Shown piece after piece: positions 2,204 through 45,600 of a stretch of 64,000 nucleotides of DNA. This stretch comes from Minutocellus sp. GHC0000111 (Eukaryota). A program made the position numbers and the translations under genes. Below the pieces are notes generated by a model that saw only the letters and a program-made list of their open reading frames with translations, did not search any database and was not told where the DNA came from. How positions within the stretch are numbered: position 1 is the first letter of the stretch; each line of letters begins with the position of its first letter. The stretch covers positions 1,674,001-1,738,000 of the forward strand of contig OZ361259.1 in NCBI GenBank assembly GCA_977018835.1, in the 5' to 3' direction.

Positions 2204-3474
2204 ATGGCAACCCGCGCCGTCGCAATTTTGTTATGCCTGCTCTGTTACGCGGCAGCTGCCCCACGCAGCAGCAGCGCGGTCTCCGACGGCGAGGAAGCGA
2301 CGCCGAGCCAAGTGATCCCTTGGCCGAGCCAGCCGAAGTCGACAACCTCGGCCGCGGTGCGACTTCCACTCGACGCGGCGGTCCGGTTCCATGAAGCCGC
2401 CGGCGGGGCCTTCCGAATCCTGAAGAAGGAACGGCGCCGCAGCAACTACAAGAAGGCGTCGGATCTGCCTGCGGCCGAGCAGCAGGACCGGGCGCTGTCG
2501 CCGTCAAATCTCCGTTTCCTCACCAGCGGCGACAACTCCTGCACCGACCAGCTCAACACGTGTCAGGTTGAACTCGACAATTGTCGGGAAGGCAAGGCGG
2601 CAGAAGCAGACGACAATGCCCCGTCCTACCTTTACGTGCAGATGGCCCAGACCTGCAAGCTGAAGCAGAAGACCGACGGCAGAGGCAGAACGCACTACGA
2701 GCTGTCCTCAAAGGACATGGACGACGACACCTACTCCTTCACCGACCGTCCGCACCGAATCGCCGGAACGATCCCCACGAAACAATTCGTCAAGGACTTT
2801 GGCACCACGTTCAGCATCGAGTCAGGCGGCCGGCCCAACGGCGTCGTCACCTTCCGCCACGCCGACGCCAAAAGCTTCGAGGGCCCGCTCATCTCGGTCT
2901 TTGTCGAGGCCGCCCGCCACAAGGACAGCGGCAAGTACGTCTACGAGCTGACGCAAAGCGAGGAGCAGGAGGAGGTGAACGCTCTCCGGGACTTCTTCCG
3001 CGAGGAAGAGGGCGGAAGCAATGACCCCGATGGCGTCGGTGTCGTCGAGTACGAGATGTGCTCCATCTTCATTGACGCCAGTAACGAATGCGATCCTGCC
3101 AACGTTGACTCCTGCAAGATGGGCAATTGTGTGTGGAAAGAGTATAAGAGCGACTGCGAAGCATGTCAGTGCTACGTTTCTGGACATGGGTCGAAACCCA
3201 ATAACAAACATGAGTTGAATGAGACGCCTCCTTGCTTTTGCGCGAGAAGAGTGCAAGAACTGGGAACAAGGCGAAGTGTGTGGACAAGAGGCCTAACGGT
3301 GACATTTGTCACATGAGCTGGCAGTGCAAAGGTGGGCATTGCAGGCAAGATGGCTTTTGCGCATCGCTCAAATCGGGCATTGATCGCTGTGGTGCAAACA
3401 TGGAATGCAGATCAATGCGTTGTTCTAATGGTTATTGCCAAGCTACTAAAGATTGGACGGACTGGCTCGACTGA
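2204..3474 (+). pseudogene. Tandem copy B of the secreted Cys-rich protein, frameshifted near 3241
   Basis: ATG 2204 is followed by a signal peptide (MATRAVAILLCLLCYAAA). Relative to copy A (TTTTGCGAGAAG) there is an extra CG (TTTTGCGCGAGAAG, 3241-3242), which moves the Cys-rich tail into ORF 3232-3474. Confidence 0.75.
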
Positions 3475-3768
3475 CGCACATGTGCATGTGTGAGAGGATT
3501 GTAGGCCACTAAAGTGAAGTGAATTTGTTCGCTACCCCATTCTACTTGTTCTGCATGTTTTGGTGGTTGTTACGATACATGAGTCTCACCCGTTCATTGG
3601 GGCCGGGTGGTTTTTGTTGATGTTGTGGGTTGCCTTCATTCGCTTGACAGTCTTCGCCGTCGGCGACGTTTCGGGGGGTCACTTTTGGGCTGTTGTTTTG
3701 GGGCCATACGATATCCGAGGAAGACAGATGACGGCTTCATCATTCCTCCCAACGATATCCCAGCCCAC

Positions 3769-4944
3769 ATGACAAATTCCACTTACAGCGGCAGCGCACG
3801 CTGTGATATGGCCCATGATCAGGCAGGCCAGCATCAAATGCATCAAGGCACGATACGACGTCGACGAGGGGCCCTCGCATGTTTCGTCGTCGGATGTTCT
3901 GTGCTCTACTTTCACTTTCCTTCCTCCTCGAATACGATGCGGAGGTCACTTGCCATGGAAAGCAAAACAGACGTATCAACCAAGAAACGCCCACTCTTGA
4001 AGCTTTTGGAAGGAGGAGGGCGCCTCGGTGATCAGCTTTTCATGTATGCCTCCCAACTTGGCCTGGCTAAGACACATGACATGGACTCTTGTATGGTCAA
4101 GACCGATCAACGTTTGACCATCGAGCAGATGTTTGTAGGACCAATCGAGTGGTGCGATGACGAAGAATACGACATCGAGTGGGTGGGTGGCTGGAGATCT
4201 GAGAAGGTCAGCCAGCTTCGACGCGTCGACGACGATGCGGATCTTGTCTATGGATTGAGTGGATACATGCACTCGCCTCGAAACTTTGTCGCGGCCAAGA
4301 CGCCCAGCGGAGACTTTGTCGACTACAGCGACCTACTGTATGAAAAGCTGACGTTGAAAACAGATGCAGAGTGGCAGGACGCGATACAAACGATAATGAA
4401 AGAGGGCGAACGCGACGAAGATGAATCCACTGAAGTAATAAAGGTTGGCATCCATGTTCGGCGAGGAGACAAGGTTGATGATCCCAAGTACACCGTGGCT
4501 GATGCCGACTACTATCGAAGGGTCATGGACTATTTCCGCAAGAAATACAACCGTGATTGCGAATCAAGCGGCGACACAGAGGATTGTAAAAGGGCTCGAG
4601 TCAAGTTTTACATTAGCACCGACACAATTTCCTGGATTGATGAAAACGACGAAACATTCGAGCATCCGGACGTCGTACTGTTATCGAATGCAGCCGAAAC
4701 AGAGGAGGAAGATAACGTGTGTGTCATGATCGACTTCGCAATGCTTACAAAATGCGATCACATTATCCTTTCGGGAGGAGGATTTGGTTTTTGGGCGGCC
4801 TATCTTGGTGCCAATCAGAATGGTGGGGAAGTGATCATCGGGTCAGCACAAGAGCATCTCAAAATGAGAACATCTAGCCTTGAGGAGTGGACCAACATTG
4901 ACAAAGTAGACTTCGATGCAGAGAACATTGCGGCTGTTAAATAA
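3769..4944 (+). CDS. Glycosyltransferase family 11 (alpha-1,2-fucosyltransferase-like), type II membrane protein
   Basis: GT11 motifs GRLGDQLFMYA, VGIHVRRGD and DFAMLTKCDHIILSGGGFGFWAAYL, plus an N-terminal TM segment. Start codon uncertain (3769 or 3808). Confidence 0.9.
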   Translation: MTNSTYSGSARCDMAHDQAGQHQMHQGTIRRRRGALACFVVGCSVLYFHFPSSSNTMRRSLAMESKTDVSTKKRPLLKLLEGGGRLGDQLFMYASQLGLAKTHDMDSCMVKTDQRLTIEQMFVGPIEWCDDEEYDIEWVGGWRSEKVSQLRRVDDDADLVYGLSGYMHSPRNFVAAKTPSGDFVDYSDLLYEKLTLKTDAEWQDAIQTIMKEGERDEDESTEVIKVGIHVRRGDKVDDPKYTVADADYYRRVMDYFRKKYNRDCESSGDTEDCKRARVKFYISTDTISWIDENDETFEHPDVVLLSNAAETEEEDNVCVMIDFAMLTKCDHIILSGGGFGFWAAYLGANQNGGEVIIGSAQEHLKMRTSSLEEWTNIDKVDFDAENIAAVK

Positions 4945-5006
4945 CATGTATCTCTAAATTTACTGTTGCGCTTATTTATTCTCACGATTGTAAATCACTC
5001 TTCCAA

Positions 5007-5265
5007 CTACCCACAAGTGCCGTCATGTCGGCACTTTCTCCCGGCGGGGCACTGGCTAGAGTAGCGGCACATGCTCGACGTTGTCTGGGTCATGAGGTTA
5101 GACGTCGTGCCAAGTCCAGCATCTAGAATCACATTGGGTTCAGCTCGTCGGGTCATCTTCTCCTTGATCTTGGCCGGTCCCTGCTTCTTATTGCCGGGAT
5201 ATTCGCGAGATGTTTCGCTAAGGAAGAGGGTTGCCACGCCGGCGACCATGCCAGCGGCGGTGGAG
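5007..5265 (-). pseudogene. 3' fragment of the subtilisin-like S8 protease gene (STAAGMVAGVATLFL...CRHDGTCG*), separated from the 5' part by the 7.1-kb insertion
   Basis: Translation continues the S8 catalytic helix (consensus GTSMAxPHVAGVAAL) and joins in frame to 12370+ across the duplicated TGGAG. Confidence 0.88.
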
Positions 5266-5313
5266 AGTGATCATTACAGTCTAAGCTACTACTTTAAAGT
5301 GCCTACAATTGGA

Positions 5314-6680
5314 TTACTCAACATGCACTGAAAAATCGTTGTCCTTGACAGTAAATGCTCGAGCAGCTGCTTCTTCGTTTCTCAAGTGGTTGTGTGCGCA
5401 GGTGTACCAAATGGAGCGAACTGAACTGAAAATGTCGTCGCCCTTTTCATTCTTGTACTTTGTCAGTGCATCGTGCCTTCTTTTGTCCAGGGTTCGATTT
5501 GTGTGCAAACTGATTGTCGTTGGCCACCATTTAGTTCGGAGCCAGTCGTACCCTTCAACTAGCTTCTTCTGGTTGTCTGTGCGACTTGCGACCTCCACCT
5601 CCAGCACCGCCAAGACGTCATCCACGAATCCAATGGCCGTGGCCTCGTCGTCTCGATCGTTCTGCTCCTCCTCCGTCAAGTCTCGCTTGAAGTGGCCGAG
5701 AAAGGTGGCGTTCTTCAGTGCAGACAGGTAGTTCATCTGCCTTCCGGCTTGGTGTGCTTGCTTCACAAAAGCAGCGGCCAGGTACAGCAGGACGTGCCTT
5801 GGGGTGGATCCATCAGCCACTGTTCCGTCGTCGTTTCGATAGTACTCTCGACCCTGAGTCTGCTGTGTCGACACCCCTCCGGAGCGATTGGCCCCCCAGC
5901 AGCCGGCTGGACTCTCGGGTCGTCCAGGAACTGATCAATGTGGGGGGCGGTGGGTCTGAGCAGGGCCCGGATGGTCTCCACAAACTTGTGCCGGTGGCGG
6001 TAGACGATTGCCGTCATGGGCAAAGCGCCCTCGCCAGTGCCGTCGTCGTCGCCGCCGTCATCGTCGTCGTCACCCCAGAGGAAAGCATCTTCCTCGGCCT
6101 GCCGCTGATCCTTGATGGCCAGGCCCTCCTGCGTCGGCTCCACAGAGAGGCCGGCCCTGCTGCTGCGCTGCATGGCCGCAAATGACGCGTAGGCCGTGCC
6201 GTCCTGGCCGGGAAAAGACGGGAGGAACATTGCCGTTTGCTCGGCCTCCACCACCTCCGACCATGCATCTATGAAGCTGCTTTCTATGGCCTCGAGAGCT
6301 GTAGCCCCCCCTGCCCTCTCTTGCACCATTTCGAGGAACTCTTCATGGGAGACCCCCAGGGCCACGGCGGCGTCGGCCAGCTCGTCGACCAGTTTCCCAA
6401 ACCACTGGTCCGGAGCTCCGGGTTCATCGATGGCCCTCTGGATCTGCTCCTGGACAAGCGCGCTCGCCGCTCGCACGGCGATGCTCTCTGGAGGGGCTGG
6501 CACGTCCGAGAGTTGCGGTGGGACAGGCGCCGTGGGCACGTCTACACCCAGCTCTTGAAGCCGCTGGCGAGCTGTGGCTGCGGTGGCCAGTGCGCGGGCT
6601 ACATCGTTGGGATCATATGTTGGTGGGTCTCCCGCACCTCCGCCTTGCGTCCCGGCGGGATCGGCTCGTTCGTCACTCAT
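5314..6680 (-). CDS. Element ORF1, unknown protein; probably one gene with a frameshift at about 5875-5930
   Basis: Overlapping ORFs 5763-6734 (ATG at 6680, MSDERAD) and 5314-5874. The second frame is open up to ~5930 and the overlap contains a C6/G6 run (5892-5897). Confidence 0.6.
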
Positions 6681-6786
6681 GGCGACGGCCCAGATATGAA
6701 TGGCCGTAAGCTCCCCCCCATATTTTCCCCGCATTTCAAGTTTGCTTTCCCCCTCATTCCTACTTTTGCTTCATTATTTGACTGTT

Positions 6787-8214
6787 ATGGTATCCACCGC
6801 CGCCGAACCCACGAGCAACGGCCGCCGCAGCTTGCGCAGCAGCAGTAATAAGGAAAAGAAGAAGCCCGATGGCTGCCTAACTGGCAAGGTTGAGTACCTC
6901 CATGCGCCTGCTCCCCACGCCATCATCACCGAGAACAATCGCAAGAGACGAGAGACTGAGGCGGCCAAGATGGCGGCCGAGGAGCAGATGCAGCAGCAGA
7001 AGCGCACGCGCATGTCGGAGGTGACGGCGGCGACGGCCGATGCGTCAGTATCCAGCAGCGGAGGCGATACTGAGGGCGGTAATACCAATGGGATGCAGAT
7101 GGATGATGATGATGCAGAAACCACCATGGCGGAGGTCGCCACCACCACCACCAACAATAACAACAACAACAACAACACGGAACCGGCTGATACGGCAACG
7201 GACGGCGCCAACGAGCCTTCCGACGGAGAGGACGGAGATGCCAATGGCGTGCCCGGGACGATATCCGTCGTCGGCCCGGACCAGGCCAACGCTGTCGGCC
7301 GCAGCAATGGTGCCGGTGCTGGTGCCAATCTCAGTGATGCGGCCGTCGGTGGCAGCACCAGCCATGGGGACGGGGCCGAAGACCAGCCTGCGGATGGGGC
7401 GGGCGGGACGGGCGAGATGAACGTCGTTGACCCGCTTGTCGGCATTATGCGGTCGTACTGTGCTTTGAAAGGGATTGGCGTCGACAAGGCCGAGCTGATG
7501 GCAATTGCCGCCCTTAGAGCTGCCACGGGTGAAGCGGAAGTTACCGGTGGCGGTGATGGCGGTTGTATCGGTGGTGCCGCCGATGTGGGCCGCCTCACTA
7601 TCCCCCCCGCCAATGGCGGCGGGGGACAGCCTACGGAGGAGCAGATGGCCTTTGTTCGGACGTCCGTTGGGTTGGCCGATGCATCGGATGCATCGCCGGA
7701 AGTGCTGCTGAATGCGGTGGTCCCTTTGTGCTGCTCCCTGGCCATGGACTGTTACCTCCTGGGAAAGGAGCTGGGTGCTTCCAGTCGGGCAGGGATTATG
7801 GCGGCCGAGGCGCTGTCCCAGGAGAAGGGGAAGGGAGTGGGGCTTGGAAAGGCCAATGCCGAGCTTGCAGCCAAATGCAATGGGCTCGAGGCAGACGTAA
7901 CGGAGCTAAGCCAGAAGCTAGAGACTTTGAATGTGGAGGAGGAGGAGGAGGAGGAGTGGGAATTCATAGCTCACGATGGTGATGAGCGATACCATTGGGT
8001 GCCTTGTCTGTTGAGCGGAGACCTGGATCGTGGCCACAACCGTCTGCTCAACTCAATCTGTGACAATCTCAGTTTGCCCAGGACTGGTAGAATGGAGGAC
8101 AAAGTCCATCGCCTGCGCTCATACGTTGGGGAGAAGGCAGCTGAAGCCCGTTGGGTCAGCGATGACGGCGATGACAGCGATGGTGCAGAGGAGGAGGCAA
8201 TGGACGAGGAGTAA
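6787..8214 (+). CDS. Element ORF2: low-complexity N-terminus, coiled coil and C-terminal SAP-like motif
   Basis: ATG 6787, basic NLS-like patches, poly-N/T and poly-E tracts. LLNSICDNLSLPRTGRMEDKVHRLRSY resembles the SAP consensus (L...C...GL...G.K..L..RL). Confidence 0.65.
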   Translation: MVSTAAEPTSNGRRSLRSSSNKEKKKPDGCLTGKVEYLHAPAPHAIITENNRKRRETEAAKMAAEEQMQQQKRTRMSEVTAATADASVSSSGGDTEGGNTNGMQMDDDDAETTMAEVATTTTNNNNNNNNTEPADTATDGANEPSDGEDGDANGVPGTISVVGPDQANAVGRSNGAGAGANLSDAAVGGSTSHGDGAEDQPADGAGGTGEMNVVDPLVGIMRSYCALKGIGVDKAELMAIAALRAATGEAEVTGGGDGGCIGGAADVGRLTIPPANGGGGQPTEEQMAFVRTSVGLADASDASPEVLLNAVVPLCCSLAMDCYLLGKELGASSRAGIMAAEALSQEKGKGVGLGKANAELAAKCNGLEADVTELSQKLETLNVEEEEEEEWEFIAHDGDERYHWVPCLLSGDLDRGHNRLLNSICDNLSLPRTGRMEDKVHRLRSYVGEKAAEARWVSDDGDDSDGAEEEAMDEE

Positions 8215-8332
8215 AATGTAGCAAGTCAATGTCTGTCGGACGGAAAGTGAAGAGGTAGAAGTAGATCTAGAGATAGCAGTAGAGTCGGATGGTAGATAAT
8301 TTAGTTTAGGGGATCATTCATTCTAGAAACAT

Positions 8333-10072
8333 TTATTCCTGATCAGATGCTTTTCGAGCCTCCCTCAGCTTTGCCCTTGTAACACGAACGCCCTCATCAA
8401 ATTCATATTGCAATATTTCCTGCATGTCGCTATAAAATTGCGACAGGCATCCCTCGTGGTCCTCTACCTTGCCCTTGCGATATCTGTTGACAAAAGGATC
8501 AACAATCCAATCGAACTGGCCACCGTGCCGGTGGCTAAAGGCCTGCAATGTCCTAGCGCCGTCCTCCAAATACTTGTTTAAGTATTGGCCGATAGAAGCC
8601 ACCGTTTCATTTACCCCTCCTCTATTTTCGGGAAATACGCAGGAATCGAGCTGGGCCTCGAAGTTCCCACCACCGTCACAAGCTGCAACCGCTACGCCAA
8701 ACGCTTTCACGTGAGAATTTGGCCCCGAATAATACAAACCAAGTCCAACTTTCTTATTGCCCATTTGATGAAACGATCGAAGGGCCACTTCATCCGTTGG
8801 CATCACTCCACCGTACATGCCCTCCACGATGGCACAAAGAGAGAAAAGAGCCATGGCTCTTTGATTCTCGTTGCTGGTACCGCGAAATACGTCAGTCGCG
8901 AAGGCATCAACATATTCCTTGACGGTATTCGACATGAGAGACATTCCTCTGTACGTGAGGTATTGCTTCGGAGTCCAAAGACCCAAATCGATGGCGCGGT
9001 TGTACACTATCTCTGCATCTTCATCGCGCATTGTGTGCGTAGGAAGGACAGTAACGATAGTGCTGAAAAAAGCGGTATTTGAAAGCATAATCTCCGCCTC
9101 CGCCGCGGACTTTGCCTTGGAAATAAGATGGTTTCGAATTCTCATTCTTCTGGACACCTCATCCTCCGAAAGATACGGAGTTGGCTTGGTAGCGTTTTCG
9201 ATGCAGAAGGACGCATCGTCGAGATGCTCCAGAAACACATTCCAGAGCATCCAAAACATTCTCGGCGTATGCATGTATCGCATAACGATATCCGCGCCTC
9301 CCATGGCAGGATCACGTCTAATGTAACACAGGAATTTGTTGAGCGATTCCAACCGACCACCTTTCATCAACACTACCGACCGTGCCTCCTCATCGGATCC
9401 GTTGAGAATGCTATCCAATTCTGACTGGCTCCATTCACTCTTCTTTTTTGTAGATACGCGCGCATTGTACAATTGCTCCCGATAAGACGTGAGTAGATAC
9501 GGCTCGCCATTTCGTATCTCGTCCTTCTTTTTCATCTCATGGGGAACCAAGTGAGTTGCCACTTTGTGCTTTGCAAAGCAAACCAGCAAATTTCCGAGAG
9601 TATCAGGATTGTTCTTGCATGCTCTATCAATCCAACGAAGATGGCTGTTGTTGATGATATCGCCCGCTCTTATCCGCTCGTCGCTCCGTATCGGTACCAT
9701 TGCATCACACATGTTCGGGGGCAGCACATACTCCAACTCTTTGAACAGGTTGTTCTTGCCTGCCTGCCAGTAATGCGTTACAAATACATTGTAAGCGATG
9801 GCTCGGCCGGACCGGACAGAGTGCTTCACCGCACCTTTGTTCCAGGCAAAGGATGGCTTGGATATGATAATGCCAGCTGCTTTGCTCTTGGCTCCATCGT
9901 TGAGCATCTCGATTGTTGGTTGACGCTCGCGCTGGACATAAGCCGACTGATTGGCGCCGCTTCTCTTTGGCTGGTTGTGCCGCTTGCTACTTGGGACACG
10001 CTGCCGACCGGGCCCTTTGGGTCCTTTCGCAGGGCGACCACGGCTGCGCGCCTTTGGCTTTTGAGTATCCAT
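8333..10072 (-). CDS. Element ORF3: basic N-terminus plus divergent HhH-GPD (endonuclease III/Nth-like) DNA glycosylase fold
   Basis: FFSTIVTVLP...TPKQY...RAMALFSLCAIVEGMYGGVMPTDEVALRSFHQMGNKKVGL...PNSHV...VNETVASIGQ follows Nth motifs in order. The open frame extends to 10210, so the start is uncertain. Confidence 0.7.
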   Translation of the reverse strand: MDTQKPKARSRGRPAKGPKGPGRQRVPSSKRHNQPKRSGANQSAYVQRERQPTIEMLNDGAKSKAAGIIISKPSFAWNKGAVKHSVRSGRAIAYNVFVTHYWQAGKNNLFKELEYVLPPNMCDAMVPIRSDERIRAGDIINNSHLRWIDRACKNNPDTLGNLLVCFAKHKVATHLVPHEMKKKDEIRNGEPYLLTSYREQLYNARVSTKKKSEWSQSELDSILNGSDEEARSVVLMKGGRLESLNKFLCYIRRDPAMGGADIVMRYMHTPRMFWMLWNVFLEHLDDASFCIENATKPTPYLSEDEVSRRMRIRNHLISKAKSAAEAEIMLSNTAFFSTIVTVLPTHTMRDEDAEIVYNRAIDLGLWTPKQYLTYRGMSLMSNTVKEYVDAFATDVFRGTSNENQRAMALFSLCAIVEGMYGGVMPTDEVALRSFHQMGNKKVGLGLYYSGPNSHVKAFGVAVAACDGGGNFEAQLDSCVFPENRGGVNETVASIGQYLNKYLEDGARTLQAFSHRHGGQFDWIVDPFVNRYRKGKVEDHEGCLSQFYSDMQEILQYEFDEGVRVTRAKLREARKASDQE

Positions 10073-10512
10073 GGCTGCAAAGCGATATGTTTGCGATCGG
10101 CCGCCAGCAAATGCAAGCATGGAAAAGACAAAATGTGATTTTTCGTTGGATTTTTCGATTGTTTTTTCGACCAGGGGGAGGCTGATTTGATTTATTTTTA
10201 ATTTCATCACATGAAAAGATACAGATACAATACCTACCTTCCCATCTTTCTCACATCATGTACTTTCAGCATAAATATCAATATTTCTTAGAAAGGACCC
10301 CAAACCGTCAAAAACAGAGCTTTGCTTCTTCTCGCGCGGCATGTCGCGTGCCTTTTGGAGGGAAAACGGGGGTCTCCTCCTTTAAATTCCCCCTTATATT
10401 CTGAGACAAATGGGTTATGAGTCAGTCATGCATTCATCTCACATGTTGCGTTGCCGGCACCGGAGGAGCGGTTGTACTGGGCCGGAGTTGCTGAAAAGGA
10501 GGAGGGAACATC

Positions 10513-12198
10513 ATGAACTTCCGTAACATCGCTATTGCTGCGCTTGCCGCTCTCGGCTCTCAGCCGACAGAGGTGTCCGCCCGCGCTCTCCGCCACCGCC
10601 AGGGGGAGGCCTCATCCACCCGAGGCGATGGGCCATCGCACCATCCATGGGCGTACGGCGCAGCAGCTGCTGCAGCGGCGGCATTTGCTGCGGCAAATAT
10701 GGTGGGCGGAGGCCGAGCTCGTGGTGGCCGCCGCTCAGCTGCCAATGGCGACGAGGAGGAGGTCGACGAAGAGGAAGACATCGCCCCCCTCCCCAGCTCG
10801 TCTGACACCCCCGGAACAGCCAATCCTCTCGCGCGCATGGGGTCTGTTCCGGGACCAATCCCCGGGGCGGCACGGGAGGTCGAGTCCGCCCCTGCTATTC
10901 GCCGGACCGGACCACGACTTGGCAACACGTCCGGCCAAAGGAGGCGCCGCGACACTCTCCGCATGCTCGGGGGGCAGCCACCAGAGCTCATACCAGAAGG
11001 CACTCCCCCGTCTGGACTAGAGATCGACGTCCCGATGTTTGAGATAGACCGAGAATACGAGAAGGCAGGATTCGAGCTCACCACGCCGGGCGTGTTTTAC
11101 CACGAACGGACGCAAATGCCCTACCGTCTTGTGGGTGTGCTGGAGGGAACCAGGGACTGCCTGGTTCGCCTCCGAGTTCTGGACGACGTTGTTGATGCCA
11201 CGGAAACGGCCACCGCCCATCAACAGCTCGAGGACGCGCGGCTAGATCATTCGGCGGAGTCGATAGGCGACATCCTTCTGACCATTCCTATTGCCATCGA
11301 CGATGACTCTGATCTTACCCGTCCCTTCGGATACAAAGGCCTACGGAAGGCGCCAACCATCAAGGCTCTAAAGATACCATACGAGACCGAGCAGGAGATT
11401 GCTGACCACATCGCCGGCATGAGGGGAGAGTATGTCGTCTACTACAAGGTGATCAACGGGGAACGGAAGAGGAAGGTCGTGAGGTCAGCAGCAGGGATCC
11501 CTCGGCGTGCGAACCTGAAGAACTACCGCGTTGATGAACTTGTTATGATATCCAAGGCTACACCGGAAGAAAGATCGCTTCACCCTCGCGTCCCAAGTTA
11601 CGGCGGCACCGTTGCCGATTGTCAAAGGTTTCATGCTGATTTGTCCAAGCATAAAAATCTTGTGCTTGCGACATACGCTAAGTACATAGTTGGGCGTGAT
11701 CTAGTGCCAGTTTCAGACTTGGAAATGGTCCCAGCAGCTGGGAAGCACTGGGTGATCGCAGAGGAAATATTGGCCCAGCGCATGGACACGTGGGGAGAGT
11801 ACAAGGACTCTGCAAATTTTGTGGGTACCGCGAAAGTTACTTACCGCAAAATAACTGCACTTACCAATGCGGTGATGTTTGGCACACACCACAAGCTTAC
11901 ACCGAACTGGAGCGATGACTACCATTCCTGCCACCTGGGTTGCGAAGGAGAACACAACGGCACCTGCACACTGTACACTCACGTGACGTTTGGTACGGCG
12001 AAACTAAACGAAGGCCTTCACAAGAAGTGCCCTGGCCACATCGTCGTGGTGCAACCCGGCGGCAGGCTCCGTGCGTACAAGGTGTGCCGATGTGATGCAG
12101 ACCCCAGCCAGACCCCAGCACAACTTTGCTGCATGAAGATGAGGGTAGTTTCAGTTGGAGCGGAGGTGCCCCTGGTGTGGGTCGGAGGAAGGGTGTAG
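10513..12198 (+). CDS. Element ORF4: C-terminal His-Cys box / His-Me finger zinc-binding endonuclease (I-PpoI-like homing endonuclease family)
   Basis: HSCHLGC..HNGTC....HVTFGT...N....KC.G...CRC...CC matches the SHLC-HN-xxC-xxxxH-x8-N-x5-C pattern of the His-Cys-box zinc loop. Confidence 0.72.
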   Translation: MNFRNIAIAALAALGSQPTEVSARALRHRQGEASSTRGDGPSHHPWAYGAAAAAAAAFAAANMVGGGRARGGRRSAANGDEEEVDEEEDIAPLPSSSDTPGTANPLARMGSVPGPIPGAAREVESAPAIRRTGPRLGNTSGQRRRRDTLRMLGGQPPELIPEGTPPSGLEIDVPMFEIDREYEKAGFELTTPGVFYHERTQMPYRLVGVLEGTRDCLVRLRVLDDVVDATETATAHQQLEDARLDHSAESIGDILLTIPIAIDDDSDLTRPFGYKGLRKAPTIKALKIPYETEQEIADHIAGMRGEYVVYYKVINGERKRKVVRSAAGIPRRANLKNYRVDELVMISKATPEERSLHPRVPSYGGTVADCQRFHADLSKHKNLVLATYAKYIVGRDLVPVSDLEMVPAAGKHWVIAEEILAQRMDTWGEYKDSANFVGTAKVTYRKITALTNAVMFGTHHKLTPNWSDDYHSCHLGCEGEHNGTCTLYTHVTFGTAKLNEGLHKKCPGHIVVVQPGGRLRAYKVCRCDADPSQTPAQLCCMKMRVVSVGAEVPLVWVGGRV

Positions 12199-12369
12199 AG
12201 AGGCCAGCGTTCTTTTAAGTAGTAATTTCGAACTGTCGCCACACATGATGGAACCTTGAGCCTCTCCGGACACATAGCTGAGTTCCTAGCGCAAGGTCGT
12301 GACTGGTATGTAAGGTATTGACTTCTATAGCATTAACCTAAGCTATTCGTTATTGCTCAATTCAACTAC

Positions 12370-13879
12370 TGGAGGTGCCCTGAGCTTGGACGGATCCGTC
12401 GGTGCCAACGTTGGATGCACCGGTAATGGTGGAGCCAGGAGCAAAGAGGTCGATGCAGGCTCCATAGTTGGAGAAGGATGAACGCGTGTGAGATCCGGAG
12501 AGGCTGTCATCGACGGCGGCGACCGTAATGGCCAGGCTTGAGTAGGGAGAGAAGTTGCAGGCGTCAGCTATAGATTATTGAAAGAGGCAACAGAAAGGGA
12601 TCGATTGAGATATATCATGTGAAGGATACTGCAGTGAAGACATAAACTGTATATATTAATAAATAGAAGCCGACTACTTACCGTTCTCGTTTCCGGCAGC
12701 AATCACCACGGTAATGCCCTCGTTGACCATTTCTTCCACGGCCTGGTTCAGAATTTCACTCTGTCCCTGCAGACCCCACCCAATGACCGCCACGGCCTTA
12801 CTCTTGGTGCTGCCATGGCTAGCCTTGTGATTGCTCGCCGCCCATTCCATACCGCAAAGCACCGACGTCGTGGTACCCTCGCCGTTCATGTCCAAAACTT
12901 GAACGGGATGAAGCGTCGCCGCCTTACCGGCACCATAGGATGCTCCACCTGCAATCGAAGCAACGTGAGTACCATGGACAGTGTTCGACCAGTCACTAGA
13001 TCCACCGGTGCAGCTCGTGCCACTTTGCATCCTACCTGAGAACTCTTGATGGGCCGTGTGAATACCCGTGTCGAGGACGTAGAGATCGATATTCTTCCCA
13101 TCGTGAAAGTAAACATATGCTCCATTGCGCGGGCCGCGGGATGACATGCGATCTAGTCCCCAGTTTTTAGATGGATCGTCGATGTTGTTCCATCGCCACA
13201 TGGCCAGGGAACGATGCCCATCATCGACAAAGGTTTCCTCGAGCATCCGTTTGGTCTGCGCCTGCTCATCGGACAGTCGACGCTGGCTCCCGGCCTCCTC
13301 ATCGACATCCTGGGCCTCCTGGAGGTTTCGAACATGTTCGGCAATGGGCACCGCCTGGGCCGTACCTCGGGCGTAGACCTTGTAGTTGTTCTCCATCAGC
13401 ACGACGCTGGCATCGAGTGCCATGGCGGCAGCCTGAGCCTCCTTCAGTATGGCACTGAATCCCTTGATGGTTTGATCGTAGGTCGCCATCAGTGTGCCGC
13501 CGTAGGTGCTGATCAAAGAGGAAGCGGTCACGTCAGCCTTGGGCATGTTTCTACCAGTTGCGACAGTTACAATGTATTCCGAAGGAATTATATCAGATGC
13601 TGGCGGCGGGTTGGCCACGGCTAGATGACGCTCGGTGGTTTGAGAAGAGTCGGTCTCGAGACGGCGGAGGGGGTTGGCTTCGTTGCCATCGGGGGTACGC
13701 GTGTTGATCTTTTGAGAATCTTTGTTCTGTGACCGACTCTTGACTGCGAGATATCTTCGTTTTTGCTCGAAATTATCAGAGCTAAAGGATGTCATACCCA
13801 GAATGCACACGCCGGCAGCCATAAGAGTTATGGAGAGGACGGTCATGGTCCGCTTGCCGTCTCGTCGGCTGCCGGTCAT
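12370..13879 (-). pseudogene. 5' part of subtilisin/proteinase-K-like S8 serine protease (I9-like prodomain); exons 13879-12682 and 12567-12370
   Basis: Catalytic Asp (YVLDTGI), His (HGTHVAS), oxyanion Asn (AAGN), SNYG and IDLFAPG motifs, then GTS running into a stop inside the insertion. GT-AG intron 12681-12568. Confidence 0.92.
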
Positions 13880-14446
13880 TGTCGTTGGCTACTTTTGTGC
13901 GCGTTGAAAAAGATACGGAGCACAAGATGTGCTGGTTTTGGCTGATGAATGCAACGCTTTGATAGCAAAGCAACGTGGTCGCAAATATTGATTGCAGCGC
14001 CTACTGGAAGGGCATCGCAACTACACCTGATCAGTCTCTTCCGAGTGTTGCCTCCTTGCCTGCTGCTGCTAGCCTAGCTATCTGTCTGATTTTCGTGATA
14101 TTTCCGTTGTAGGGGGTAAGATTGCTTATTTCATTAACACATTTTTTTTGAAGTATCTGCTAACTGCTTCAATGTTTCTTAGCGTTGCTGAAATCGCATA
14201 AGCAAAGTGCCGATGACCTTGCCGATGAATTTTTCGATGCCTCAATCAAGAGCTGGCCGCCCGCCTACCAAAAGTTCTACGTGCTTCTACCGAGGAGAGT
14301 AGTCTCAGGGGAAGCTCGAGGAAGTCATCTTTGCATCTTGCGAGGGAATATAGAGGACATATCTTGAGGGCGGTTATTCTTTTTTACTGCCGGTCTCTCC
14401 GTATCTTGTGGATCATACAGTCTTTGAGCAAAAGTTCGACCCTACA

Positions 14447-22824: not shown

Positions 22825-25800
22825 ATGGACAGCAACCCTTCGAATGGTAAAGGACAAGTTGCCTCGGTGGCATCCGGCGATATCGTCAGCGATCATGAGA
22901 TCTCAGCACAAGATGTGCCGGCTACAAACGCCCGCCCCGGCGCACAAGAGGGTGTTGAAGGGAACCCGAACTCTGCCGGTACCGCAAATGCGAATGCAGC
23001 ATCAACTAATGACCGGAGGGACACCCCCATGTCTCCGCGCGGTGATTTGGACGCGGCAGTAACAAACTTTGTCAAGCATGGGTCGTTTGATATTTCGAGA
23101 AATGGCGAGGGCGGTACTAGTAATGCTGAAAATGACTCAGGTGACGAGAAACCAGCACATGATGGTTCGCGTAATCAAAGGGACGATAGTAGGGAGGGAA
23201 ACGATACAACGAAAGGAACTCCTGATAATTCGGCGGTGCCCAAGATGGATGGTAGCAGAGCCATTCAATCATCTGCCCCAGCCGCTGACAAACCAAAGTG
23301 GTCCTCCCCAGGAGATGGCAATCCTCGTCAATCCGACCGACTTACCGTCAACAACAAGCCAGCCTGCGCCTACGACGGCTGTCCCAAGCAATCCCAAGGA
23401 CGCAGACTCAACTTTATGTGCATGGCGCACTTCAAATCCATCACCGGGGGCAAGATGATCACACCGATTAGCAAGACTGCCTACGATCCCAACAAGGTGA
23501 TTCCGGCAGAAGATGTCGGCAAAGGCTGGACGGTATTGGAAGTGCCCCGCATCAAGGTCAAGAAGACGAATGGAACGAAGACGGTGGACAAGTACTGGTT
23601 CTCACCCGTCAAGCACCACCGTTTTAGGTCGAGGGTGGAGATTGAACGCTTTCAAAAGGCATTGGAAGAGGTGGACGGTGGTGATGAAGATGCTGCCTGG
23701 GAATTATTCCGAAGGGGTGGCAAGAAGGACAGCCGATCGGCCAAGGGGAATGGCAATGGCGATGGCGATGATCGGTGTGAAGATAGCGATTCTTCTTCCG
23801 ACGAGGACGATACCAGCGATTGGATATGTGACAATTGCGGGGCAGAGGTTCCCGAATCGTTGTCGCGATGCAAGTGCTACCGATGGCGCAATGGCATTCA
23901 TCCCATGATGAAGAAGAAGTTTAGGCGCCAATGAGAACAGGCACGGGCATTGGCCGAACGTTCTGGCGATGATAATGAAGATCTCAATGGTGAATACTGG
24001 GATAAAGACGAGGGTAACGGCGGTGGTGCGGAGAAGGTACCCGGCGCAACAACCACGCGTTCTGGGCGCAAGAGCGGTCGCCGGAAGACCCTTGCCGACG
24101 AGCAGGCCAAGGCCGCCGAGGCAGCGACCAAGAAGAGACAGCGTGGCGCCAAGGCTGCTGCCGCCGGCAAGGAGGACACCATTTCTACTGCTAGCCCTGG
24201 AAAGAGTGCCATCGTCACAACAAAGAGCAGCAGGGCGGCACCACCAACGCCGGCCAAGGCGCGGAAGCGTGTCAAGTCATCTGCGAAGGCTCGGCGAGAT
24301 TCGCGAAAGCGAGAGGCGGCCGAAGAAGAGGAGGTGGCCGCCGAGGAGGGCAAGTTGAGCGATAGTTTTCATGCCACGATGCTACGGGCGGTCAACGAGG
24401 CGCCGAATCCGTATGCGCAGGCCCTTGCCGCAGCGGCTTTCGATGCTGCCGGCGGTGATGCTTGGCTCCGGGAGCATGTGACCAAGCAAGCCGTGAGGAC
24501 GAATGTAACCCTAAAGGTGCTGGGGATGGCACCGATTCCGCCAACAAAGATACTTTCAGCAAAAGAAGATTCCGTGAAAGATGTTTTGGAAGAGATCGTA
24601 TCCGCAGTCGAGGCTAGAGATCTTGCGGTAAACCTTCCGTCGAACTCGTTTGTTGTGTCCTTGAGCAAACCAATGGGAATCACCCTATCGCAGAAGGATG
24701 GTGGCGGCGTTCGAGTCTCAGCAATCAAGGCCGGCAGCCCTGCCGATGTTTCAGGCAAAGTCAAAATCGATGATACTCTTCTAGCAGTAAATGGAAAGGA
24801 TGTGAGAAAGAAGGAATTCCGCGCTATCCTTGATGTCATCGGCAAGAGTGGACCGTCCGTGGACATGCTCTTTTCCTCTAAAGAAGAACAGAAAGAGCAG
24901 CCAAACCATGCCATTACGCCTGAAACTTCTATTCCCATTGTCTCAGAGAAGAATAATCTTGTCGATGACAACTATACTGCAATGGAAATTGAGAATGAAG
25001 TACCTCCGGATACTCCCGCCGAGCCTCTGGTGGAAGACCCTCATTGGGATTGGGACGAGGCGAAGCAGATCAGCTACCGGCAAGTTCTGCGCATATCGGT
25101 CAAAGATCCTCACGCGAAGCAGCTTGTGACCGATGCTCGCATCAGTGGCATTCCTGTCGTTCTCACAGATCATATTGGATGGGCTGGGTTTGCCGCCCGG
25201 TGGCTCCGCCGAAAAGACACCGAGGAAGCCCTTGATGTATGTGGCGACGAGGAAGAAAAGAAGTCCGATGGTGGGAGGGAGGCTAGCAATGCAGAAACAA
25301 TCGATGGCAAAGCCCTCGATCTATCTGATCCTTCTCTCTACCTTGACGTGGAGGCAATGGCAGAAGATACTGGTGAGCAAGAGGTTCCGGTCATCAAAAA
25401 GAGCTATGACGACACAGATCCCATCGCCGGCAAAATCCCTCTTCATGTATTTTTGCAAGAGTCTTGGCCTTCTCGTACATCAAAGACTGCGCACAACCAA
25501 ACGCTCTACCTTCACCAATGGCAATTTCCTTTGAATGAGGTGGCAGGCCGAAAGCTTTGCCACCAAAGTCAGCCCCTTCCCAACTCAATTTTTGGAGAGG
25601 ATTTGCATAAGTATTGGCTGGATCGGGTGCCAAACGATTCCTCTCTGCAATATCTTTTTATGGGCAATGAAGAAACGATGAGTCGCATGCACAAGGACCC
25701 TGGCGGCCTTGCCATTACGATTGCGCCGATTGTTGGCGAAAAGGAATGCGTGCTTGTCCATAGAGATGACGGCAACACTTGCCTCTATCACTTGGAAGCA

Positions 25801-28800
25801 TCGATTGACCCCGATAACATTGATCTCGATGCCTACCCTCTCCTTGCAAATGCTCGTATTTGGCGAACAACGGTGAAGCCCGGAGAAATTCTTCTCATGC
25901 CACAGGGCACCTACCATCAATGTCGCAACGTGAAGTCCTGTCTCTCCTATAGTCGATTCCATCTGGATGAAGTGAATCTACCAGCGTTCTTACAGAGCTT
26001 GTTCGATGGGGACGCGACCGAGCTTCTGCACGACGAAGTCATCTGGAACGCGGTCGAAGCACTAATGAAGAAGGTGGACAAAGTCACCGATGCCGGCCAA
26101 GATCTTGTGAAGAATTCCATAAAAGAAGGGAAAGCCGCCCCACTTTCCCCAGGCGATATGCGGGTGAGCGAGGACATTTGCAAGGCAATTAATGCCCTCC
26201 GGTCACTCCGTCATGTTGCTCGCGAGATTGCACGTAAGCTCGACCTCCGGGAAGCCGTCAAGGGTGTTGGTGTCGACGAAATGCCCGGGCCGTCTTCCGG
26301 CACCAGCAAAATCGAGGGTGGTAAAGAGACCTGGTTTGCAATGGTCGAAGATATTGACTATTGTTTGCATGAATTTCGCTATCGCTTCTCCAAGGAGGTT
26401 CCGCCTCTTTCATTGCGGTGATGCTTGGCTCCGGGAGCATGTGACCAAGCAAGCCGTGAGGACGAATGTAACCCTAAAGGTGCTGGGGATGGCACCGATT
26501 CCGCCAACAAAGATACTTTCAGCAAAAGAAGATTCCGTGAAAGATGTTTTGGAAGAGATCGTATCCGCAGTCGAGGCTAGAGATCTTGCGGTAAACCTTC
26601 CGTCGAACTCGTTTGTTGTGTCCTTGAGCAAACCAATGGGAATCACCCTATCGCAGAAGGATGGTGGCGGCGTTCGAGTCTCAGCAATCAAGGCCGGCAG
26701 CCCTGCCGATGTTTCAGGCAAAGTCAAAATCGATGATACTCTTCTAGCAGTAAATGGAAAGGATGTGAGAAAGAAGGAATTCCGCGCTATCCTTGATGTC
26801 ATCGGCAAGAGTGGACCGTCCGTGGACATGCTCTTTTCCTCTAAAGAAGAACAGAAAGAGCAGCCAAACCATGCCATTACGCCTGAAACTTCTATTCCCA
26901 TTGTCTCAGAGAAGAATAATCTTGTCGATGACAACTATACTGCAATGGAAATTGAGAATGAAGTACCTCCGGATACTCCCGCCGAGCCTCTGGTGGAAGA
27001 CCCTCATTGGGATTGGGACGAGGCGAAGCAGATCAGCTACCGGCAAGTTCTGCGCATATCGGTCAAAGATCCTCACGCGAAGCAGCTTGTGACCGATGCT
27101 CGCATCAGTGGCATTCCTGTCGTTCTCACAGATCATATTGGATGGGCTGGGTTTGCCGCCCGGTGGCTCCGCCGAAAAGACACCGAGGAAGCCCTTGATG
27201 TATGTGGCGACGAGGAAGAAAAGAAGTCCGATGGTGGGAGGGAGGCTAGCAATGCAGAAACAATCGATGGCAAAGCCCTCGATCTATCTGATCCTTCTCT
27301 CTACCTTGACGTGGAGGCAATGGCAGAAGATACTGGTGAGCAAGAGGTTCCGGTCATCAAAAAGAGCTATGACGACACAGATCCCATCGCCGGCAAAATC
27401 CCTCTTCATGTATTTTTGCAAGAGTCTTGGCCTTCTCGTACATCAAAGACTGCGCACAACCAAACGCTCTACCTTCACCAATGGCAATTTCCTTTGAATG
27501 AGGTGGCAGGCCGAAAGCTTTGCCACCAAAGTCAGCCCCTTCCCAACTCAATTTTTGGAGAGGATTTGCATAAGTATTGGCTGGATCGGGTGCCAAACGA
27601 TTCCTCTCTGCAATATCTTTTTATGGGCAATGAAGAAACGATGAGTCGCATGCACAAGGACCCTGGCGGCCTTGCCATTACGATTGCGCCGATTGTTGGC
27701 GAAAAGGAATGCGTGCTTGTCCATAGAGATGACGGCAACACTTGCCTCTATCACTTGGAAGCATCGATTGACCCCGATAACATTGATCTCGATGCCTACC
27801 CTCTCCTTGCAAATGCTCGTATTTGGCGAACAACGGTGAAGCCCGGAGAAATTCTTCTCATGCCACAGGGCACCTACCATCAATGTCGCAACGTGAAGTC
27901 CTGTCTCTCCTATAGTCGATTCCATCTGGATGAAGTGAATCTACCAGCGTTCTTACAGAGCTTGTTCGATGGGGACGCGACCGAGCTTCTGCACGACGAA
28001 GTCATCTGGAACGCGGTCGAAGCACTAATGAAGAAGGTGGACAAAGTCACCGATGCCGGCCAAGATCTTGTGAAGAATTCCATAAAAGAAGGGAAAGCCG
28101 CCCCACTTTCCCCAGGCGATATGCGGGTGAGCGAGGACATTTGCAAGGCAATTAATGCCCTCCGGTCACTCCGTCATGTTGCTCGCGAGATTGCACGTAA
28201 GCTCGACCTCCGGGAAGCCGTCAAGGGTGTTGGTGTCGACGAAATGCCCGGGCCGTCTTCCGGCACCAGCAAAATCGAGGGTGGTAAAGAGACCTGGTTT
28301 GCAATGGTCGAAGATATTGACTATTGTTTGCATGAATTTCGCTATCGCTTCTCCAAGGAGGTTCCGCCTCTTTCATTCAGCAGGCCAAGGGGAAAGAAAC
28401 GCTTTGCTTTGCCATCGACACTGATGAAGTGCAAACGTGACGACGCCGCGAACATCACGGTGTACAATGGATACCAACGAGTTGATAATGACGAAGATGG
28501 AAGCCCAATATTGGCCTTCTCCACAGACATTGAGCGCGGATACATTTTGCTTTCAAAGGCCCCGGCACAAATGACGGAGGAAGAGCGACTGCAGATGAGC
28601 AAGAAGATTGCAAATCTTTCCATCGGCGAGACAATTATGGTCAAAGTGAAGAACAAAATGTGTGACGCGACTGTGATGGAGATTCGCAAGCACGAACACG
28701 CTGCATACATCAGCTACGAAGCCTACCCGGGTCTCTACGATGAATATCTACCAACAAATCTCTTGCGTGAACCCATTGGCGGCAAAGCAGAGGTGCCGCT

Positions 28801-29068
28801 GGCAGAGCTAAAGCCAGGAAAAGTTGTTATTGGGCTTGTGGGCGACAAACGGGAAGAATACCGAGGGACCGTCAAGTCAACAAAATCCGGACTGCTAATT
28901 CGAGCCAAGCTCAACTTTCGAGCTGGCATTTTTGTTGAGCGTTGGATTGATTCTGATGCGATTGTCGGGATAGGCGCGATTCAGAGAGGAAGAAAGAGGA
29001 AAGCATCTTTGAGCGATGGAGAAGGGGGCTCCTCTGATGCAAATGATAATGTCGAAGATTGCGAGTGA
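22825..29068 (+). pseudogene. Multidomain chromatin protein (CxxxxC..CxxH finger, MBD, RanBP2-like finger, PDZ, JmjC, Tudor-like), disrupted by an in-frame TGA and an internal tandem duplication
   Basis: GKGW...R...DKYWFSP....FRSRVEIERF (MBD), KPMGITL...SPADVSGKVKIDD.LLAVNG (PDZ), HKD...PGEILLMPQGTYHQCRN (JmjC). ORFs 22807-23934 and 23950-26421 are in the same frame, separated only by TGA 23932-23934. Confidence 0.8.
24452..28377 (+). repeat. Head-to-tail tandem duplication, 2 x 1,963 bp (24452-26414, 26415-28377)
   Basis: Sequence restarts at 26415 with GCGGTGATGCTTGG, identical to 24452. The six-frame ORFs repeat at a constant 1,963-bp offset. Confidence 0.97.
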
Positions 29069-42679: not shown

Positions 42680-45600
42680 ATGTCGTCGACCCCGACGACG
42701 CCCAAGCGGCCCCGCTCCCCCACCGGCAGCAACCATGGCGACGAGGAGGTGCCGTCGTCGGCCATCGGATACTTTCTGTCGAGCGTCAAGAAGAGCGTGA
42801 CGAAGCGGATGCGGATCGGGTACGACTACCTCGGCGGGGGCACTACCAACGGACAGACGGAGGGGGATAACAATGGTAGTGATGGTGGCGCTGCTGCCTC
42901 TGCCTCTGGAGTTGCCGGCGGGGCCACCCCGCACGCCCACCGTGCAGCCTTGCCGCGGAAGGAGTTCGGTGCCTCGCCCGTGCTGGGCTCAACGCCCGCT
43001 CCAGCGGCTGGACCGGGCGGTTTTGGTTCGCCGCCCTTTGCCAGCCCGCCGGGGGTGGCTCCGTTTGCCTCTGGTGTGAGCGGCCAGAAGCCAAGGTCCA
43101 GCGGAAGTGGCAGTGGAAGCAAGGTGACCCGATTCGCCGACGGGAAGAAGACTACCGGAGCGGGTGGTTCGGAGGGTAAGTTTTGTAGGCAGGGTTGGTG
43201 TATTTGGTTTCGGTGTCCATTGTAATTTTGGCATAGCAGCGTGTGCATATATTGCATTGATGCGATGGACCGGCAACAACCTGACCCTGATAGGCGGAGA
43301 GAGGGAGAGGGATGGACCGGCCGGCCGGGCGTGCGCAAGGCGTGTTGGATGACTTGTGGGGGGGGGGAACGGCTATAACACTGGTTCTAGCTAGACCAAC
43401 GTCGTAGGCGCTGAAGGTGGAAAAAGAGGGTTGTTCATTCTGAAAGTTTCCCGTGGTGGCAGGGATGGATGGATTGTGCCTCAGGAAGGAAATGCGCTGG
43501 GGGGATGGACGAGGCCAATGGACACAAGTCCTTTGGTTGCCTTCTGTTGAGGATATATTTCTGAAACAGGCGAAAATGCTGCTGTTGGTCCGATGTGGAA
43601 ACTGGGGATCCGAGGTCTTTTGGTTCATTATGTTCATTATACTCACTCACTCACTCACTCACTTATTCACTCACGCACTCAACCTCGCATCTACTTCCCT
43701 TTGCATTAAACATTGCAACTTCCAAAGCAGCCACCTCTAAATCCTCCGGCTTCCAGGCCCGATCGACTCCCCATCCGTCCAAGAAGAAGACTCTGGCCAC
43801 CGTATCCTCCAAGGGACTGGCCCACAAGCGTACGCCCCGCTCGTCCGCCAAATCACCCTACCGATCGGTGACCAAGGCCAACCGATCGGCCTCCAGGCGA
43901 TACAACAGCTACCGTCCCAGTTCGGCCACGCTGTCCATCTCGGCCCGCAAGGCACGGCAGCACGGCCAAGGTGGTGGAGGGCAAAACGGAGACGTCGCCA
44001 AGGATACCGCCGATGCCGTCCGCGATCTGCTCCAGTCCATTGCCTCGCCTCCCGCAGGTGGAGTGGCGAGAGAAGAGGAGAAGAAGGACGGGAACGAAAT
44101 GTTTGGCTTTCAGGGTGCCAAAAAGACCCTGACGGTCAACAAGGTCAATCGCATCTATGGGCCTACTCATGGAAGTCGGATTGTCCCTTATGGGACCACC
44201 GGTGCCGGCATCGGTGGCAGCATGGCCCCTCCTCCGCCTCGAACTCCTGCCGCCGCAGCTGGTGGTGCTGCTGGTGCTTCCAAGTCCATCCTCCACGCCG
44301 GTCCTGGCCACGCCCACAGTGGCGCGCATCACGTTCAGTTCACCACCCCGGCACCCTCCACCAGTGCCCATCATCATCTCCCCTCGCACAAGACCCCGTA
44401 TCCCGGCCGCGGTACTGATATTGTAGCACCCACCAGTCCCGCCGCCGCCCACGGCGCGGACAAGCGGACCGGTGCCGTCCCCGACGGACACGTCCACTTT
44501 CAGTTCAACTCGCAGCAAACGACCGAGCTGAGCGTTGGCAAGCACGACCTCAAGGGCAAGTCGGAGCGGTTGCCCCACGATGCGTACCCCGGCCGTGGGG
44601 AGGATGGTGCCGTCAAAAAGATTCTTCCCGCACACAGCCAGCCGCTGCAAACTCCCAAGACCAAGGGTACCGATGGTGGCAGTGGTAGTGGTAGCGGTGG
44701 TGCCGTCCGGTATGTCGGCCCGCCCAACACCCCGCGCGATCCCAAGACCGGTGAGGTCCAGTCGACTTCCTCGGGTACCAAGTACGGGTACAGCTTCACC
44801 CCGTCCAAGCCCGTGCAGGCCGATGAGATTACCGACGCGGTATTGGCCGAGGTGGCCATTGAGCGGAGCGGTGTCGATGCCGCCGCGCCCAGTGCGGCCG
44901 GCACCAAGAAGGTGGATTGGGATTTCGACGGCGATATGCTCAGCCCCAGCCAGTATCGCAAGAAGCACAAGATGGGCAAGGTGGAGAAGAAGGCCAAGAA
45001 GGTGGTCAAGGGCACTCCTCATCCCAAAAAGGCGGGCGGTGGTCATGGTAAGAGTGGCGGTTTGCCGTACGCCTCCCCCGCCGCTTCGGCCCCATCTGGT
45101 TGTTCCGGTGGCAGTACCCTCGACAAGGCCCGAAGGACCGCGGCGGCACAGCAGAAGGCCACTGCCGCTCCTGCCCCGGCCACTCCTGCTCCAGGTCCAC
45201 CCCCGTCCTCTGGAGGAGATGTGTCCAAGAAGTACACCGGCTCATGGGGCAACCTGTTCTCTCTCAAGCCAGGACAGTGGCGCTGCGATGCATGCCGTAC
45301 CATGAACGAGGCCTCGGACAAAACCAAATGCCGATCATGTGAGATGGCCAAGCCCGGTGCCGAGGGTGGTGACGACGGTGGTGATGACGGCAAATCTTCC
45401 GCTGCCGCACCTGCCCCGGCAGCAACAATTGGTGCCGGAGGATTCGCGTTCGGTGCGCCCGCCCCAGTTCCTGCTCTTGATACCCCCGCCGCGGCACCTG
45501 CTCCCGGTGCAATCGGTACCGGCGGATTCTCGTTTGGTGCCCCGGCTCCGGCACCGGCCGCTAAGGAATCCGATGCTGCTCCAGCTCCAGCGCCTGCAGG

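Follow-up and report, generated by a model that had tools for sequence, protein, structure and literature searches.

A 7,104-bp insertion, bounded by a 5-bp duplication, interrupts a subtilase gene at its catalytic serine in the window (the whole stretch of DNA analysed, 64,000 nucleotides). One of its five open frames, ORF D, has a C-terminal His-Cys-box-like motif that sequence comparison confirms as real and beyond chance, and the protein likely works like a His-Cys-box nuclease. The domain very probably has the predicted His-Me fold, and it is probably active as a catalyst. The reading preferred here, a tentative one, is that of a non-splicing mobile element in which ORF D likely cuts the uninterrupted site, and repair either copies the insert or leaves a small deletion. 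The features are as follows.

5007..5265, minus strand: 3' part of the host subtilase gene, 85 codons to the stop, severed by the insertion
5261..5265, plus strand: left TGGAG, 5-bp direct repeat, likely a target-site duplication
5266..12369, no strand: the insertion, 7,104 bp, without terminal inverted repeats (TIRs) or long direct repeats in repeat scans
5314..5934, minus strand: ORF A2, 206-codon open frame, no family, in a different frame from A1, whose end it overlaps
5763..6734, minus strand: ORF A1, 323 aa, no family
6700..8214, plus strand: ORF B, 504 aa, mostly low-complexity, no family
8333..10072, minus strand: ORF C, 579 aa, C-terminal half weakly like endonuclease III (helix-hairpin-helix glycosylase)
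10513..12198, plus strand: ORF D, 561 aa, open reading frame with the C-terminal His-Cys-box-like domain
11932..12132, plus strand: His-Cys-box-like core, aa 474-540 of ORF D
12299..12366, plus strand: right end, 68 bp with a weak hairpin
12370..12374, plus strand: right TGGAG, overlapping the catalytic Thr-Ser codons of the host
12370..13879, minus strand: 5' part of the host subtilase gene (S8 with an I9 prodomain; catalytic Asp, His and Gly-Thr-Ser)
about 12568-12673, minus strand: ordinary intron of the host subtilase, read by eye

A sequence-only reading had quoted a peptide from the C-terminus of a 561-aa frame near the right end of the element. The peptide is found there, at the end of the plus-strand frame 10513-12198, and the element ends at 12369, 171 bp past the ORF D stop codon. 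The protein consists of a hydrophobic leader (about aa 1-23), a low-complexity linker, a middle region conserved in the family (about aa 170-400) and the C-terminal domain. The core residues are H474 (nt 11932), C477 (11941), C485 (11965), H490 (11980), N499 (12007), C506 (12028), C525 (12085), C527 (12091) and C540 (12130). H474 is the predicted general base and N499 the predicted metal ligand; C477, C485 and H490 would form one putative zinc site and C506, C525, C527 and C540 a second. The pattern H-x1,2-C-x4,8-C-x4-H-x8-N-x5,6-C (I-PpoI numbering), whose loop lengths were loosened after the alignment was seen, matches once in the six-frame translation of the window (127,998 residues); shuffled versions of ORF D gave it in none of 200,000 cases, and shuffles confined to the last 160 aa in 5 of 200,000. 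It also matches 6 of 11 collected proteins, which are all six that have the domain.

The protein family is small and without annotation. A word search gave one relative, P0002, at 49% identity (2 matches including self among 7,470 candidates), and seven matches, one of them spurious, came from a profile search against 1.84 billion representatives. The domain alignment has six rows; outside it are P0010, which is repetitive (four stretches) and unrelated, and two family members without the C-terminal domain, P0006 and P0011. The claim that the His and Asn are intact is borne out, as both are invariant in all six domain-bearing members, whose identity to the ORF D domain is 24-76% and, in the six-row alignment, 29-76%, together with seven further Cys and His residues (C477, C485, H490, C506, C525, C527 and C540). 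His412, upstream of the core, is also invariant; known enzymes carry an upstream Cys there. The H490-x8-N499 spacing equals that of H110-x8-N119 in I-PpoI and is kept in 6/6 rows. No locus related to ORF D was confirmed among the viral contigs, JGI metagenome contigs and phage records searched, and PF05551 scored above its cut-off in 0 of 301 bacterial genomes scanned.

How close is the site to that of I-PpoI? In the alignment of PMC9587614 the I-PpoI steps are His-Cys 2, Cys-Cys 5, Cys-His 5, His-Asn 9 and Asn-Cys 6, followed by Pro-Gly; in ORF D the same steps are 3, 8, 5, 9 and 7, again followed by Pro-Gly. One relative of ORF D has the first-step spacing of 2 and another the last-step spacing of 6, and three distant relatives retain the C-x-N-x-x-H of I-PpoI. 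The same alignment gives I-DirI the 7-residue Asn-to-Cys step seen in ORF D, as well as an E114V change, and PMC9587614 lists S97 and E114 as conserved across the I-PpoI group. Equivalents of these two residues are absent, with C473 and G494 standing at their places in ORF D, and neither is kept in any of the six rows. The match to an I-PpoI-type site that had been claimed therefore stands for the His, the Asn and the spacing; against it are the loss of S97 and E114 and the profile score.

That score comes from a search with PF05551 (zf-His_Me_endon), the check proposed along with the claim. A Pfam scan of the whole protein matched no family. With the last 161 aa, PF05551 was the sole Pfam match, at 14.5 bits (E 0.043), about half of its curated cut-off of 27 bits. 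When the six domain sequences were scanned singly against 24,736 families, two matched PF05551 (best E 0.051) and none matched any other family. The outcome is divided: that PF05551 is the only family matched by any of the six counts for homing, and a score at half of the cut-off counts against it. AlphaFold2 gave a pLDDT of 31 for whole ORF D from a 2-row alignment and of 39 for the domain from a 6-row alignment; the domain model, at this low confidence, places a strand-strand-helix on H474, H490 and N499. Foldseek and VIA searches with these poor models had portal proteins as best match (Z 5.8), which is taken as noise. PDB sequence and profile searches with ORF D did not list I-PpoI (1A73), the ESM Atlas gave no usable match for the ORF D domain or for ORF C, and NCBIfam, PHROGs and PADLOC gave nothing informative, PADLOC (a prokaryotic library) matching 0 of 7 proteins.

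The flanks of the insertion are one minus-strand subtilase gene, split at the catalytic Ser codon. Deletion of 5266-12369 plus one TGGAG restores an open frame with G-T-S-x5-V-A-G spacing, the canonical spacing at the catalytic Ser of subtilases, and the size of the insert and its duplication follow from this restoration. The subtilase tail is not repeated within the element, since blastn of the element against the window gave the self match only. Could the insert be an intron? A spliceosomal intron was rejected because 0 of 168 GT/GC..AG pairs remove the insert and restore the host frame, and a group I intron was ruled out by the lack of an Rfam match. No rRNA or intron family reached the Rfam gathering score in the 64 kb, and Rfam on 4900-12700 gave just four chance-level matches at E<=5. 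The domain was said to lie outside an rDNA intron, and this is supported; its host is the subtilase gene.

Nor do the ends fit other candidates. Ends of the Helitron type (A/TC...CTRR/T) do not restore the host motif. Imperfect inverted arms of 20 nt (5280-5299/12212-12231) were rejected as TIRs, since one sits 140 bp inside the end, and 31 open codons at 12226-12318 were rejected as a transposase relic, no family being matched. The arms come after the stops of ORFs A2 and D, and CTAAGCTA is found close to each end as a direct repeat (5281-5288 and 12338-12345); both are possible binding or polyadenylation signals. The five element frames (A2, A1, B, C and D) have no Pfam match to a transposase, recombinase, Rep or reverse transcriptase, a search from which a very divergent enzyme could escape. 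Neither a crude H-x-x-R...H/W...Y scan nor Pfam found a tyrosine recombinase in the five frames, and the HUH/HUQ motif of HUH Rep is likewise in 0/5, again with no Pfam match.

The right end has a history of its own. Its 68 bp recur in contigs with another upstream sequence, have at least three other downstream flanks among the 12 best matches listed, and stand at doubled depth, with loose ends at 12299, 12366 and 12368. The sharing of 12299-12366 with other loci indicates that the right end belongs to a multi-copy family with a different interior. In the DNA run X5 a loose end and a depth step at about 9026-9067 suggest a further partial copy of the right half of the element elsewhere; a joint 14114->9009 in the same run is taken as an artefact.

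What does the uninterrupted site look like? Public runs matching 5200-12400 number 18, of which 14 (from 4 studies) hold part of the element, and 4 of the 18 were compared, a set distinct from the four that carry the label organism A. Two DNA-type runs of one study contain the joint 5248->12370, in which three other letters intervene, at 88% likeness and with short sides of 30 and 21 letters, joints of a kind for which caution is advised. The empty allele is 9 nt shorter, in frame, exactly at the insertion site. Its haplotype is 7-9% diverged around the site (4588-5248 and 12370 to about 12613), one 120-bp stretch having failed to align. Pieces from X14 differ from the filled allele at 14/167, 40/430 and 9/127 letters, with 0 gaps in 724. 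In X5 there are 2 differences in 1,040 letters further right; the divergence is limited to a block that starts near 4588 and stops short of 12934, outside which identity (substitutions) is about 99.7%, and such a block within near-identical flanks fits a conversion tract. The X5 haplotypes have depths of 5.8 and 5.0, together about the 10.6 of the common flank, and one contig passes from the common flank into the diverged block; the halved depth and the bridging contig indicate that the block is allelic.

The listed changes are silent in 14 of 23 cases in the neighbouring GT11 gene and in 8 of 10 in the subtilase tail, so both alleles appear to have been functional through most of their divergence. 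The only indel among the listed changes of the empty haplotype is at the insertion point. The insertion and the 9-nt deletion both look recent and independent, at one codon, which is as expected from a site-specific cut followed by end joining. The in-frame deletion could, however, be an old tolerated variant. X14 has the scarred allele alone at the locus, yet exact element pieces are present, a pattern consistent with excision here and another copy at a different place.

ORF C has one relative, P0004, at 80% identity. Against endonuclease III, the C-terminal half of P0004 gives a pairwise E of 0.002, with the helix-hairpin-helix aligned and the Lys and Asp in register. Against an Nth profile (2 of 31 loci left out) it aligns over 110 positions at E 0.25 and ranks 1 of 1,063 including 500 shuffles; it scores 6.8 bits, the next being a shuffle at 5.7 bits, and the hhalign probability is 5.6%. 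ORF C matched no Pfam family, and the copy in the window is without ten residues, including the conserved Asp that P0004 keeps. These comparisons weakly suggest an Nth-like glycosylase gene, as a lead. A1 and A2 overlap at 5763-5934 in different frames, and RNA-library contigs cross the overlap without a gap, which argues for a real frameshift, two genes or recoding, and not for an intron or an assembly slip.

In each of two studies a single RNA-library contig covers ORF D (10711-12241 and 10638-12306), and such contigs also cover parts of A and B. The host flanks have zero depth in the RNA libraries (bins 3667-5134 and 12475-14300); there the DNA run X5 covers 30/30 bins. As the RNA runs were selected by matching words from this stretch, and these are contigs and not reads, they are a weak hint that the element, including ORF D, is transcribed. 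ORF C is without RNA-library cover, which is not taken as a sign of silence. The N-terminus of ORF D resembles a signal peptide (mean hydropathy 2.2 over 11 aa); the leader begins at the first ATG within the RNA-covered stretch and is absent from 3/3 relatives checked.

The gene content of the window is eukaryotic, with introns and JmjC, nucleoporin-like and aroDE genes. Plastid-leader motifs suggest a photosynthetic stramenopile, with a diatom as the probable source. Ordinary host genes include a GT11 fucosyltransferase (3607-4944), a fused dehydroquinase/shikimate dehydrogenase (29176-32136) and an FG-repeat protein with RanBP zinc fingers (43595-47137). A gene without known family is present as a near-identical tandem duplication (1-673 and 2674-3372). 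A PDZ-JmjC gene segment at 23950-29068 is also tandemly duplicated, with a spacing of 1,963 bp and 100% identity over the 300-nt copy shown; it is a recent duplication or an assembly artefact.

How might the element have come to this codon and spread? Under the homing-like reading, the ORF D domain would be an active beta-beta-alpha-metal nuclease in which H474 acts as general base and N499 binds the metal, and the conserved middle region would supply DNA recognition. The founding insertion would have required a break with a 5-nt stagger and an enzyme encoded elsewhere. From there, cut-and-copy gene conversion might carry the element from allele to allele in a diploid; no splicing would be involved, and one protease gene would be lost. 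The short empty allele would be an end-joining scar, resistant to recutting. His-Me nucleases act by hydrolysis of DNA and have no joining activity, so ORF D is unlikely to be the integrase behind the 5-bp duplication. The proposal that ORF D is the cutting enzyme of the element is upheld to the extent that it is the only recognisable nuclease there, and the empty allele may well be cut by it, but the proposal does not extend to integration.

Several observations count for homing: the insertion at a conserved catalytic codon, which is typical of homing sites as described in PMC3943268, the family-wide invariant active-site and zinc pattern, the strand-strand-helix on H474, H490 and N499 in a low-confidence model, the mostly silent divergence of the empty haplotype with a lone indel at the site, and, as a weak hint, RNA-library cover of ORF D but not of the host flanks. 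The main points against it are the site and the right end. His-Cys-box homodimers need site symmetry according to PMC3943268, and the reconstructed site is not palindromic (5/12 symmetric positions). The occurrence of the right end on several other flanks, with the 5-bp duplication, points to transposition at many sites. A length of 561 aa against the usual <200, the signal-peptide-like start, the loss of S97 and E114, and the scarred allele standing alone in X14 alongside element pieces also count against homing.

These same observations bear on the other explanations. Is the element a non-autonomous carrier of cargo genes, whose ends are recognised by a transposase or recombinase acting in trans? 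The nuclease would then be an accessory, as in KolobokP, with no part in choosing the site, and the short allele an excision footprint. The direct repeat at the ends, the terminal 68 bp with at least three other downstream flanks and doubled depth, the lack of a mobilising enzyme in the five frames, and X14, with its element pieces and only the scarred allele here, all suit this account, which comes close to the homing-like reading in probability. A footprint would be expected on the filled haplotype, whereas the empty one is about 9% diverged, mostly at silent positions; the element would have had to insert at this codon twice, once in each of two old alleles; and TIRs or long direct repeats were not found. 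The domain might instead be an inactive, zinc-stabilised DNA-binding module like SMAD MH1, itself a degraded I-PpoI-like domain as presented in PMC3384342, or a zinc domain with Cys and His ligands that is unrelated and only imitates the spacing. A sub-threshold HMM score, the 4/6 members without a PF05551 match and the lack of a PDB sequence match to I-PpoI would agree with this. It is nevertheless improbable: relatives with as little as about 30% identity still have the catalytic His and Asn without exception, the C-x-N-x-x-H persists in three distant ones, and in I-DirI, too, E114 is lost and the Asn-to-Cys step is longer.

A further explanation makes ORF D a secreted or cytotoxic nuclease of low specificity, carried as cargo in a toxin or addiction module with another frame as the antidote or repair enzyme. 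The leader at the first ATG of the RNA-covered stretch, the lost S97 and E114 and the glycosylase-like neighbour gene could be so accounted for, and His-Me domains are common as toxin modules in the surveys of PMC5714182 and PMC3384342. But the leader is missing in the three relatives, the lesion at the insertion site is left unexplained and, as a weak point, the prokaryotic PADLOC library matched none of the seven proteins, and this account is judged improbable. The homing-like reading also has a stronger form, that of a natural non-splicing nuclear gene drive of a marine alga: a 7-kb multi-gene element whose large, divergent His-Cys-box endonuclease would let it home into a protease active-site codon, with conversion tracts and resistance alleles from end joining left behind in wild populations, and with a base-excision glycosylase of its own, possibly against methylation silencing. 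This form is unlikely; were it true, it would represent a class of eukaryotic mobile DNA without transposase, recombinase or reverse transcriptase.

At this one locus the filled allele and a scarred empty one are both available and the target can be reconstructed, and with these at hand the cleavage target of an intron-free nuclease can be asked about. If homing is true, this would be a second independent route, after the yeast WHO elements, to non-splicing homing in nuclear protein genes, and would be relevant to the gain of heterozygosity and to gene loss in algal genomes.

How does ORF D compare with known systems? PF05551 corresponds to groups 2 and 12 in the classification of PMC5714182, and properties of His-Cys-box enzymes and co-conversion are described in PMC3943268 and PMC3384342. 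ORF D resembles I-PpoI and I-DirI in the order and spacing of H-x-C, C-x4-H-x8-N and C-P-G, in a preceding helix ending in Gly, in a second Cys-rich zinc site and in insertion at a conserved site of a host gene. It differs in its size (561 aa, with an extensive N-terminal part), in a longer loop, in one additional residue ahead of the first Cys, and in not keeping S97 and E114. Those enzymes belong to nuclear rDNA group I introns, whereas here there is no intron or rRNA, a protein-coding host is destroyed and the site is non-palindromic. A His-Me nuclease outside introns is not new, as KolobokP already has one: PMC9587614 describes these animal transposons as carrying a small I-PpoI-like nuclease with a DDD/E transposase, terminal direct repeats of 450/660 bp, TIRs and a target duplication of 3-5 bp. 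Common to KolobokP and the present element are an I-PpoI-like nuclease in a nuclear mobile element outside an intron and a short target duplication (5 bp here); the DDD/E transposase, long terminal direct repeats, TIRs and small nuclease were not found in this element.

The WHO elements of yeasts, in the account of PMC7282813, have a LAGLIDADG/intein-like enzyme and restore the host gene by a replacement 3' end. If the reading preferred here is right, this element would share with WHO a free-standing way of homing into nuclear protein-coding genes that involves no splicing and in which repair is by gene conversion or end joining, but it is without the replacement 3' end. CryptonS elements, among them one from a diatom, lack TIRs and have 5-6-bp direct repeats at their ends (PMC3212892), and Replitron-1 has variable right ends and duplications (PMC10288648). 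TGGAG repeats of the 4-6-bp class at the termini and the absence of TIRs recall Crypton and CryptonS; in contrast to CryptonS no tyrosine recombinase, and in contrast to Replitron and Helitron no HUH Rep, is present in the element frames. A literature search, which took in few subscription papers and had Repbase outside its scope, found no description of an element that lacks a transposase, encodes a large His-Cys-box protein and lies in a protein-coding gene of an alga and, within that scope, no report of a transposon-borne HhH glycosylase in algae. ORF D is a member neither of the intron-encoded His-Cys-box family nor of KolobokP; the insertion that carries it is of a kind not yet described, and its target can be tested directly.
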